DNA of 11,676 nucleotides from a virus (lineage: Duplodnaviria > Heunggongvirae > Uroviricota > Caudoviricetes), in IMG/VR virus record IMGVR_UViG_2778261356_000005, positions 1-11,676 of that record, one strand, 5' to 3'. The position numbers were made by a program. This document shows positions 1 through 3,000 of the stretch, in pieces; the first letter of the stretch is position 1, and the number at the start of each line of letters is the position of its first letter.

Positions 1-3000
1 GTTCAGGCCCACCCCACCAGGAGGACCCGCAAAAAAGGCGGCTGGTGCCGCCTTGTTGTCAGAGTGAATCTGTCCCGCCTGATTTGACCATACCGCGATA
101 ATCCAGAGCTGCCACACCTGCATCAATACGGACTTTCCAGGCCACGCCGTCAACGATAAAACCTTCCTGCTGTTCAAGGTAAGGCTCGTCATTGCCATCA
201 AGATAAGCCACCTCGATTGTGTCCGTTCCCTGTGCGGAAAGCATGTACCATTGTTTTTCGCTGATATCATCAAGGCGGGGATCGACGATGATATCAAGTA
301 GCTTGTGATACGGGTTAAAGATCCCGCTGTTTTTATCAGCCCCGAAAGGTGCGGTTGAGTTAATCATCTGCAACGCGCGATCTTCCAGTGCTGCCGGAAC
401 TAAAAGGAATTTAGGCGCAATATTCAGCACTTCGCCATTTTTGTCCTTCTGTGTGCGCATCAGGTGACGTGCTGCACTAAGTCCCGGTGTTGTCAGTCCT
501 GCTTCAATCAGGTTGCTGTGTTTTTTGTCAAACAGCGTTATTCCGTCAGAAAGTTTTACGTTGCCTGTAAGCACCAGATTAACCAGATTTCCCACCGTTC
601 TTGATGCTGCACGGCCCATAGCCATTGGCACCGTTGATAACTGATCAAGGTCATCATTGATTATCGCCTGGCGGGTAATGCTGAAAATATTCCCGTAAGT
701 AGCCAGCGCGATGGGTTCACCGCGATCGCTGGTGGTGATGTATTTATATTCTGCCCCTTCCGGCACTTTGTTTAACGTTGAGAAGCCATTCATACCAACG
801 CGGCGGGCTTCCCGGAAGTTTGAAAGGGAACCTTTTTTCGTCCACTGGCGGAATGTTTCGCCGCTGTGCTCCCAGCCTGCAAGCACTGATTTTTCAGCGC
901 CACCAGCAAGGATATCGGTAAAATCGCTGCTGCTGTGGGTGAATGCCGCGTTTACTATCTGCGAGCGTGTGCTGTAGCTGCCCGTGCTTATACCACGATG
1001 GGTTAATGATGCCTGTGCCATATCGAAAAGGCTCATCATGGCGTAAGGATTACCGCGTTCGGCCCGTTCGTGACCAAGACGCGCATTAAGCCCCTGACGC
1101 ATGGCATCGCCGGTTATATTGCCGTTATCCGTGTACGCGTAGTAAAGATTTGCGGGGGTGGTTTTGTTTGTTGGCGTTGATTCTTTACCCATAGCGAGTA
1201 AAAGGCGTTCGCGTGCATTCTCAACGCTACATTCTGAATCCGCAAGACAACTTATAGCCAGGTCGTTATATCTTCCGTTGAAGGTGCCAAACAATTCACG
1301 GATTCCGTTAAGTCGTTCCTGTTCGCCACTGCCAGTTTTCTGGCTGATCATGCTTTTAATTTTTTCCGGCATATTTGAAAAATCTCCGATTCGTTTTGAT
1401 TCAATTCGGGCCATTGCTGTAATCGCGGGTATAACCTCATCTGCGAAGCCGTTAGCCTTACACTCATTGCCATCCATCCAGGTTTCCGCCTCCATCATTG
1501 AGGTGATCTCCTGTTTGCTCCTGCCCGTTCTTCCGGCATAGGTTTCTGCCATCGTGTCGCCCAGCTTGTCCATCAGATCAGCAAAGCGGCGAACGTCGCC
1601 CGACACTCCGGCAGTAACACCACGGGGGGCATGTATCATCATCATCGCGTTTTCAGGCATAACGATGTGATCTCCACACATGGCAATAAACGACGCCATA
1701 GAAGCCGCCATGCCTTCAATGTGTACGATTTTTTTTGCCGGATGATTTTTCAGAGCGTTATAGATAGCCAGCCCTTCAAAGATGTCGCCACCAGGTGAAT
1801 GAATGCTCAGATGGATTTCAGACACATTACCGCACGCGTTGATCTCGTCAGTAAGTGCCGATGCCTTTACACCGTACCCGCCGATCTCGTCATAAATGCG
1901 CACATGTACAACATCTGCCATAGCCTTAATGGAAAACCATGTTTTCATAGCCAGGCTCCTAACGTTGCCCTGTACCAGTATTCAACCGCGCTGCGTGTGA
2001 TTTGTCCTTTCGTGGGCACTGGCATACCCGGGTGATTATCTTTGATGAACTGCTGATAGCGTTCGATCTTCTCCATAGTTCCGGCGTCTATGTGTACCGT
2101 GGCACTTTTATCCGGCTTTCTGGTGTTGTTCTCTGGCATAAATCCGCCTCCGTTTTGATTAACGGGCATCATTATTGATCGATAAAAGTAATAGATAAAT
2201 CATTTTCTACCATAAAATCAGATTATGATTTTTCTAATTATTCTCAGAGAGGCAAAGCCATTGACGCATTTTTGCCATTGAAGCAATATTAAGACTCGTC
2301 ATCCTGGCGATAAAAACTCCTTTGTCGTGTAAAAGCGCCTCCGGTAACAGCAATCGGGGGCGCTTTTTTTGCGCCTGTTTTTTTGTAAATGCTTTCGGGA
2401 ACGCTCCAGTGATGAACAAAAAACAACCTGATTCGACACTAAAAATTTTTATTCTTCAATATATCAATAACTTATAGTGGTGGTGATGGTGCCATAAAAA
2501 TCAAAAAATGCGCCTTTTTCCGCGCCCCTCCGCCCCGTGTTCATACCCACCCCACCAGGAGGACCCGCAAAAAAGGCGCCCCTGATTCATGTTTTCGGCT
2601 GGCATGTTTGTTAAGTGATTTTGATGTATGCGCATTTATTTTCACCCCCTCGTTTAAAAAGTTTTTAGTTGTGCCTCCCCCCCCTCTACCCATCTACCCG
2701 AATGCTCATCATGTCAGTAATGGCGCGGCTTTCAGCGGGTAGATAGCTTTTGGTGCTCCTCTACCTGCCGTCTACCCTGCTACCCGAAACTGATAAAATC
2801 AGGTAGAAGAGGTAGAGAGCTTTTATTAGCCTTCTACCTGGCCCTCTACCCACTTATCATGTTGAATAATATGCGTTTATTTCATTCAGGTAGATGGGGT
2901 AGAGGGCTTTTACAAAAAATTATAAAAACGCGTCGCAATCGTCTGTTGTAATTGCGTTGGTCTGCGTTACTCCCTTAACTTTTCGCGTAATATATTCATG

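Follow-up and report, generated by a model that had tools for sequence, protein, structure and literature searches.

A second cos cassette in a satellite embedded in an Stx2c prophage may serve a second class of helper phage

Results

We analyzed an 11,676-nt stretch of Caudoviricetes DNA (positions 1 to 11,676 of IMG/VR record IMGVR_UViG_2778261356_000005, hereafter the window), in which an earlier note, made from the sequence alone, had flagged a cohesive-end site (cos)-like region between a replication origin and a capsid gene. The region belongs to a phage-inducible chromosomal island (PICI) of the helper-embedded kind, seated in the large-terminase gene (gpA/TerL) of an Stx2c prophage of Escherichia coli. 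The flagged site, here called cos2, has counterparts of all lambda-type cos elements in the correct order and with the correct spacing; it is a real second cos cassette and, judged by its sequence, very probably a functional one. Its cosB-like arm belongs to another class of lambdoid prophages (type B) than that of the resident helper (type A). Together with a further site, cos3, it brackets a small open reading frame (p75) and the island capsid gene. We favor, on balance and with some reserve, the reading that the conserved late unit cos2 (type-B arm)-p75-capsid-cos3 (type-A-like arm)-p93 is a dual-specificity packaging module, which suggests that the satellite keeps one cos site per helper type.

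Read on the minus strand, cos2 comprises a T-run, the heptamer GGGTCCT, a segment ending in GAACACG, the presumed cohesive-end segment GGGCGGAGGGGCG, the block CGCGGAAAAAGGCGCATTTTT and the cosB-like arm (Table 1). The heptamer is identical to that of lambda cosQ; Wieczorek and Feiss reportedly placed the lambda element 30 nt from the top-strand nick in 2001. A lambda-type, G+C-rich cosN is present as ACACG, GGGCGGAGGGGCG and CGG in direct succession (2520-2540). Distal to the arm lies a TTTACAAAAAAACAG motif, also present in type-A arms but absent from type-B phage arms. It is overlapped by a hairpin with a T-run (GGGCGC-TTTTTTT-GCGCC, then GTTTTTTT; 2358-2389), which reads as a plus-strand terminator at a place with no evident gene.

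The 23-nt core GCGGGTCCTCCTGGTGGGGTGGG is found three times in the window, always on the minus strand (8-30, 2546-2568, and 11185-11207), and in none of 200 dinucleotide-preserving shuffles. A repeat search returned an 89-nt ungapped pair (2484-2572 and 11123-11211, 76% identity), and a MAFFT alignment of cos2 with the helper site, cos1, reveals collinear conserved blocks across ∼210 nt. Core and alignment bear out the collinear cosQ-cosN-cosB-like region that the earlier note had placed within the island, with similarity extending beyond the cosQ motif, and its location between an iteron origin and a capsid module is confirmed by the 75-codon open reading frame and the ClpP/capsid fusion gene that follow. 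Over the 67-68 nt that reach from cosQ up to and including the conserved block beside cosN, cos2 and cos1 are 94% identical, compared with 60% in the cosB-like arm (∼102 nt); the corresponding values for cos3 and cos1 are 98.5% (core) and 80.4% (arm). The helper-like copy is thus cos3 and not cos2, which the note had taken for the island's own diverged copy of the resident helper cos; it had missed that window positions 1-40 are the end of this third, fuller copy. Within the island, cos2 and cos3 are direct repeats at a distance of 2,538 nt. The left edge of the window falls 7 nt past the cos3 core, and IMG/VR contigs of related islands (L030, L083, and L084) break there too; contigs ending in the cos core (these three, L063, and the window) were considered as DNA ends and rejected as assembly breaks of isolate genomes at a repeat.

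As had been noted, the cosN-like segment of cos2 differs from that of cos1. The differences lie from cohesive-end position 7 onward, where real prophage sites also vary in both sequence and length. Their cohesive-end segments read GGGCGGGCGGCG, GGGCGGGCGGGCG (13 nt), or GGGCGGACGGCG, and a 13-nt segment as in cos2 is also found in many prophage sites next to the small-terminase allele TerSA (GGGCGGGCGGGCG). Across the sites compared, the left half GGGCGG is altered only in cos2 of one island (L091; GGGCGA). Feiss and colleagues showed that in lambda-like phages selection acts on cosQ, the left half, and the flanking CG, but not on cohesive-end positions 7-12 (PMC4669245). Because positions 7-12 tolerate change, the cosN difference is no argument against function.

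Searching E. coli genomes with the cos2 region, we recovered the islands (144 of 5426 genomes, at a coverage of at least 80%) and a 168-nt match of 93.5-94.6% identity in O103, O111, and other Shiga toxin-producing E. coli (STEC) genomes. In O103:H2 12009 the match corresponds to cos in an ordinary lambdoid prophage, located between the lysis genes and a DUF1441 TerS gene, and the cosB arm of this prophage is 91.2% identical to that of cos2. The arm that the earlier note had called diverged is therefore so with respect to the resident helper, but it is not a decayed copy. Its spacing from cosN is identical to that of the phage arm, and it is followed by p75, not by terS. Similarity to the type-B phage cos sets in at the T-run that precedes cosQ and breaks off ∼25 nt short of the start codon of phage TerS, limits that are, as predicted from the sequence, those of a functional cos. 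We considered that the region might mainly be the promoter or operator of a p75-capsid operon, with its cos-like appearance due to ancestry only. It does lie directly upstream of both genes, and p75 may be a small DNA-binding protein (a guess from its sequence); yet there is no sigma-70-like promoter on the coding strand between 1900 and 2950, and the resemblance to phage cos ends exactly at the functional limits, so that we find this account hardly credible.

The two arm types go together with two TerS alleles. TerSA and TerSB share 77% sequence identity, with all differences confined to residues 1-91 and the last 70 residues identical; the ∼90 N-terminal residues are presumed to bind DNA. 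Type-A and type-B arms diverge from ∼30 bp after the presumed cohesive end, and the divergent stretch covers the position (bp 48-65) equivalent to R3 of lambda, a critical TerS contact (PMC9026076). A set of 119 cos sites, drawn from IMG/VR contigs and genomes of E. coli, was classed by arm and by the gene that follows. Arm A precedes TerSA at 32 sites and arm B precedes TerSB at 23, whereas the combinations of arm A with TerSB and of arm B with TerSA were found at 0 sites each; the pairing is exact in the 55 phage cos sites (Fisher p = 5e-16 for the four phage rows). The remaining sites are those of islands, with an A-like arm followed by p93 (23 sites) or arm B followed by p75 (40 sites), and a single A-like arm without a recognized following gene. 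From this co-variation alone we infer that the helpers, lambdoid Stx-type prophages, would fall into at least two packaging-specificity classes. The K-12 lambdoid phage Ayreon (MF807953; L104 and L103) encodes a related TerS (MDRELKNLTLNISQLAALSGVHRQT...); its arm, similar in layout, differs in sequence. This suggests at least a third class.

At the R3-equivalent position of the type-A arm, the number of CAT repeats varies between near-identical prophages (11118-11130 in the window, L001:26250-26270 in E. coli RM10466). cos1 of the window is one CAT unit shorter than its RM10466 counterpart, another prophage (L076) is likewise short, and the spacing between cosN and arm shifts by 3 bp. A change of this size in the cosN-to-arm spacing is harmful in lambda.

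Helpers of both classes are common (402 of 5,426 genomes for type A, 226 for type B), and the same island is present in both. An integrase of the same family as in our island lies in gpA of a type-B helper in at least 14 complete genomes (found with a composite query), and the three type-B-helper island genomes that we fetched all carry both cos sites. The helper-plus-island composites of O157:H7 strains Z1836 (L087, type-A helper) and F3113 (L094, type-B helper) are 99.8% identical over 14 kb and differ only in a ∼340-nt cassette holding the cosB arm and the first ∼90 TerS codons (window ∼10710-11140). This comparison points to exchange of a packaging-specificity cassette among STEC prophages. 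The unit cos2-p75-capsid-cos3-p93 is in turn shared by gpA-embedded PICIs, a PICI at tRNA-Pro/yejM, and a PICI at the cspD/clpS locus, three settings with different integrases and replication modules. Spacing between cos2 and cos3 is 2535-2539 nt in 24 of 24 cases in which both sites are readable.

Constraint on cos2 becomes apparent across a diverged island lineage (L098). Conserved block and arm are 89% identical between the lineages, compared with 75.7% at third-codon positions of the capsid gene (Fisher p = 0.001) and 77.9% in the adjacent spacer (Fisher p = 0.013); the conserved block alone is 95% conserved. The comparison shows the signature of purifying selection on the cos2 arm.

The ClpP/capsid fusion is the sole recognizable structural gene of the island. 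Its product shares 51% identity with the fusion protein of the helper, and a search of 50,697 phage records for a source phage gave no capsid protein above 52%. Recent joint capture of cos and capsid gene does not, by these sequence identities, explain an arm similarity of 80-91%. Because the capsid protein is 51% and the arms are 80-91% identical to their phage counterparts, the arms appear to have been kept matched to helpers rather than to be a captured relic. Relative to the 659-aa helper protein, the island fusion is without ∼30 linker residues between protease and capsid domains (gap near residue 208), and this shorter linker might bear on capsid size.

For p75, the true start is probably an ATG at 2139 (64 aa), since Klebsiella and Salmonella homologs start at the internal Met. 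The gene is rarely annotated, and its C-terminal 45 residues are strongly conserved (PVPTKGQI...LGAWL). It belongs to phrog_4934, a family of unknown function, and p93 likewise matches only PHROGs of unknown function. Neither p75 nor p93 has a match in Pfam or NCBIfam, and a PDB sequence search with both returned nothing relevant and no RppC match. AlphaFold models are of low confidence (mean predicted local distance difference test scores of 62.6 for p75 and 66.9 for p93, the latter with three helices), and a Foldseek search of the PDB with the p93 model gave no match at E ≤ 0.001. The p93 family is very large and variable (976 clusters at 90% identity; nucleotide diversity (pi) 0.16 among otherwise near-identical modules), and among the identities compared there is no clear pairing of p93 allele with cos3 arm subtype. 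A tblastn search of the whole island with RppA of CFT073 for an Rpp-like adaptor yielded nothing below E = 2, and an Rfam scan of the window no family at gathering score.

The window matches E. coli RM10466 (NZ_CP028381; L001:15162-26840) with 99.97% identity, and this locus (L001) supplies the flanking sequence. All window genes are on the minus strand, and gene order therefore runs from right to left (Table 1). Truncated gpA matches residues 1-335 of an intact gpA (707 aa) with 99% identity. When intact gpA from another strain is mapped, it matches both flanks with a 12-nt overlap, which defines an island of 10,358 bp. To the left of the island, RM10466 carries the rest of gpA, the portal gene, the helper's own ClpP/capsid gene, and tail genes; Stx2c lies to the right. 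The large terminase of the Stx2c prophage is split between its ATPase and nuclease domains (9498-10505 and L001:13185-14315). As in other helper-embedded PICIs, the island occupies a helper late gene in the same orientation and is flanked by attachment (att) repeats that would restore the gene on excision; as in Gram-negative PICIs generally (about 10-20 kb), it is unidirectional, and its 10,358 bp carry int, alpA, and a primase with origin but no full set of morphogenesis genes. A capsid-forming PICI was rejected, as the island has no terS, terL, or portal gene, and a P4-like satellite was rejected because the gene set does not fit.

Table 1. Positions of helper, island, and cos features in the window or, where marked L001, in the RM10466 locus
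Feature	Position	Strand	Remarks
Helper lysis genes (lysis-protein coding sequence)	∼11431-11676	-	helper prophage; tail end only
cos1, helper cos	11000-11211	-	helper prophage
cos1 cosQ heptamer	11199-11205	-	
cos1 presumed cohesive end	11163-11174	-	GGGCGGGCGGCG
Inverted elements in cos1 type-A arm	11075-11084 and 11121-11130	-	inverted CATCATC / GATGATG around A/T-rich palindrome
Helper small terminase	10502-10978	-	DUF1441 / PHROG 141; allele TerSA
Helper large terminase gpA/TerL	9498-10505	-	N-terminal 335 codons (ATPase domain); truncated by island
Island/helper junction	9496-9507		att core around CATCCAA; helper gpA codon ∼334-336
Island integrase	8098-9336	-	
Island AlpA-like regulator	7881-8105	-	
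Island Bro-N protein and small open reading frames		-	between AlpA and primase
Island replication protein	2920-4674	-	D5_N / DUF5906 primase-helicase
Origin-type iterons	2675-2912		at least 12 TCTACC cores, both orientations; directly downstream of primase
cos2, flagged site	2385-2578	-	complete cos-like cassette
cos2 cosQ-like heptamer	2560-2566	-	GGGTCCT; starts 31 nt upstream of presumed top-strand nick (GGGCGG start)
cos2 presumed cohesive-end segment (cosN)	2523-2535	-	GGGCGGAGGGGCG, 13 nt; flanks ...ACACG / CGG...
cos2 conserved block, cosN to arm	2502-2522	-	CGCGGAAAAAGGCGCATTTTT; lambda I2 position; common to all three copies and phage cos sites
cos2 type-B cosB-like arm	2404-2501	-	
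R3-equivalent in cos2 arm	2477-2493	-	GGCACCATCACCACCAC
cos2 distal motif	2375-2389	-	TTTACAAAAAAACAG
p75	1945-2172	-	75 codons; directly downstream of cos2, where phages have TerS
Island ClpP-like prohead protease / major capsid protein fusion	59-1948	-	629 aa
Capsid-gene terminator hairpin	∼36-54		
cos3, cosQ-side last 40 nt	1-40	-	heptamer 22-28; remainder just left of window
cos3, entire	L001:15001-15195		immediately downstream of capsid-gene terminator, upstream of p93
p93	L001:14681-14962		93-aa gene after cos3; just left of window
Second island/helper junction	L001:14299-14310		left of window

Discussion

In lambda, 21, and N15, packaging specificity lies in the contact of TerS with cosB at initiation, and termination is independent of cosB (PMC4669245, PMC9026076). 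A dual-specificity module would use these rules as follows. Excision of the island would restore the helper gpA/TerL gene; with gpA split, no packaging by the helper is possible as long as the island stays in place. The excised island would replicate from its own origin into concatemers, on which a type-A helper terminase, as in this genome, would initiate at cos3 and a type-B helper terminase at cos2. Termination would follow at a canonical cosQ-cosN once the head is full, with no need for cosB, and cos2 of the window, which has the canonical cosQ, could also serve the resident type-A terminase as a place to cut at termination. Such a hedge would let the same satellite follow helpers that swap their cosB/TerS N-terminal cassette. 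That no Rpp homolog was found in the island fits direct mimicry of helper cosB.

Several observations weigh against this interpretation. The nick positions are assigned by analogy with lambda, and the resident helper is of type A, so that cos2 would be non-cognate in this genome. Molecules starting at cos2 and ending at cos3 would have unequal ends (13 and 12 nt, with a mismatch). Among close islands, pi of the cos2 arm (0.027) is indistinguishable from that of capsid third-codon positions (0.025). The cos2 heptamer is AGGTACT in 27 of 40 islands and canonical GGGTCCT in 13, including the window. GGGTCCT is shared by cos1, cos3, and 55 phage sites, a phage-site count biased by the fact that our cos sample was partly gathered by exact match to the canonical core; the canonical cosQ in 24 of 24 cos3 cases is unbiased, as these were collected via cos2. 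No part of the module varies more among close islands than the stretch from cosQ to the nick in cos2 (pi 0.137, compared with 0.016 at cos3), as would fit relaxed constraint or a role in initiation only. As to the unequal ends, two-base cohesive-end mismatches in lambda entail only a ∼four-fold loss of yield (PMC4669245); multimeric molecules could also circularize by recombination. We looked for physical ends in related phages as well: records matching cos1 are all in prophage form, the phage Ayreon record opens at an arbitrary position and its cos differs, phage Lys8385Vzw (ends predicted by PhageTerm) uses a different, 3′-overhang cos, and a study of O157 Sakai is without end sequences; a literature search found no end-mapping for this phage family.

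The altered cosQ of 27 of the 40 islands and its high diversity next to a cos3 that is canonical in 24 of 24 cases are what one would expect if cos2 were a vestige of past recombination or module exchange at the shared core, now unused, with packaging from cos3 only; in EcCICFT073, one of two cos sites is dispensable for transfer (PMC6092414). We consider this unlikely, since conservation of block and arm across diverged lineages exceeds that of neutral proxies (p = 0.001), the spacing is fixed, the site has been kept in 144 genomes and in three attachment-site families, and an arm identity of 91% to a live phage class contrasts with 51% for the linked capsid gene. Neither does the heptamer behave as in random decay. 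AGGTACT is unchanged in the diverged lineage (L098), which is 12% different elsewhere, and looks maintained rather than decaying. It is confined to islands and, among the sites collected, never stands beside terS. It usually comes with GTCCACG in place of GAACACG beside the nick; this flank is also present in a cos3 with canonical cosQ, so that by itself it is probably tolerated.

Termination in lambda requires cosQ, whereas initiation does not (PMC6739421, PMC4669245), and our working hypothesis is that most islands have turned cos2 into a site for initiation only. As a tentative extension of the dual-specificity reading, to which we give less credence than to the module itself, PICIs of this family may keep one cos per helper class as a hedge, with AGGTACT cos2 sites serving only initiation and packaging runs ending at cos3.

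An intact arm beside an often altered cosQ would also suit a decoy, to which type-B terminase binds, and which it perhaps nicks, so that it is diverted from helper DNA while the island is packaged from cos3. Satellites commonly interfere with helper packaging (PMC6739421), and replication of the island amplifies cos2. We regard this as quite unlikely: a DNA sink inhibits weakly next to protein inhibitors like Rpp, and packaging in type-B helpers would be left unexplained, given the type-A-like arm of cos3. A further alternative, very unlikely in our view, is that cos2 mainly provides an extra termination point with either helper, tuning molecule length to n × 10.36 + 7.8 kb or to a small capsid made with the capsid protein of the island. 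Lambda-like termination without cosB (PMC4669245), the canonical cosQ of the window cos2, and the distances in the 10,358-bp unit (7,820 bp or 75.5% from cos3 to cos2, 2,538 bp from cos2 to cos3) would allow this. However, cosQ of cos2 is non-canonical in most islands, the reverse of what termination would require; length tuning moreover gives no reason for a conserved type-B arm, and the resulting ends would be mismatched.

Satellites that steal packaging spread virulence and resistance genes. Seated in its large-terminase gene, the island controls DNA packaging of the Stx2c phage; because gpA is split, packaging of the toxin phage depends on precise excision of the island. Exchange of the specificity cassette among STEC prophages would be an escape move that selects for a satellite with two sites, and the two arms with the two TerS alleles could serve as orthogonal tools for cosmid-type transduction. 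The earlier note saw an oddity in the place of this cos copy, where the helper has Nu1-A, and in the capsid gene after it; the oddity is less than it seemed, since E. coli PICIs with cos, with two cos, and embedded in helpers have already been published (PMC6092414, PMC6739421, PMC10111431). A cos-bearing helper-embedded PICI is thus known, and the architecture of the dual-class module and the functional hypothesis attached to it are new; a literature search found no paper linking two PICI cos sites to two helper specificities.

EcCICFT073 resembles our island in its int-alpA-primase-ori-late layout, its two cos sites with helper-like cosQ/cosN, its capsid-protein homolog in the late zone, and its last gene (p93, 91% identical); like EcCICFT073, our island would rely on TerS and TerL of its helper. 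The EcCICFT073 sites are inverted and flank rppA, whereas those of our island are direct repeats 2.5 kb apart flanking the capsid module. EcCICFT073 cosB resembles that of no phage and depends on the adaptor Rpp (PMC6739421); the arms described here resemble natural phage arms (cos2 91% type B, cos3 80% resident type A). A PICI of this Rpp-dependent type was rejected, as there is no RppA match and the arms are phage-like. Helper TerS also differs, being of the DUF1441 type here and of the lambda Nu1 type in the EcCICFT073 system.

Helper-embedded PICIs were described by Tommasini, Mageeney and Williams in 2023 (PMC10111431) as lying in a late gene of their own lambdoid helper, in the same direction and with four zones, as does our island, whose helper, unlike theirs, is an Stx2c prophage. 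That study reports one 258-bp cos-like stretch shared by satellite and helper, and offers no analysis of cos subsites, of a second site, or of specificity classes. SaPIbov5 and SaPIbov4 also combine a copy of the helper cos with a homolog of the helper capsid protein (Ccm), and SaPIbov4 was reported to have two putative cos sites (PMC6092414, PMC8569155); their sequences and host are unrelated to those of our island. Size redirection by Ccm has been shown for SaPIbov5 (PMC8569155), whereas the homolog described here is known from sequence alone. In its direct mimicry of helper cos, our island is closer to SaPIbov5 or P4 than to EcCICFT073. The closest precedent for the two helper classes is the pair lambda and 21 (and N15). 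TerS family and arm sequences differ from those of classes A and B, for which specificity is deduced from co-variation, but the logic is the same: a shared cosQ/cosN and TerL-binding end of TerS, combined with a matched pair of cosB and TerS N terminus.

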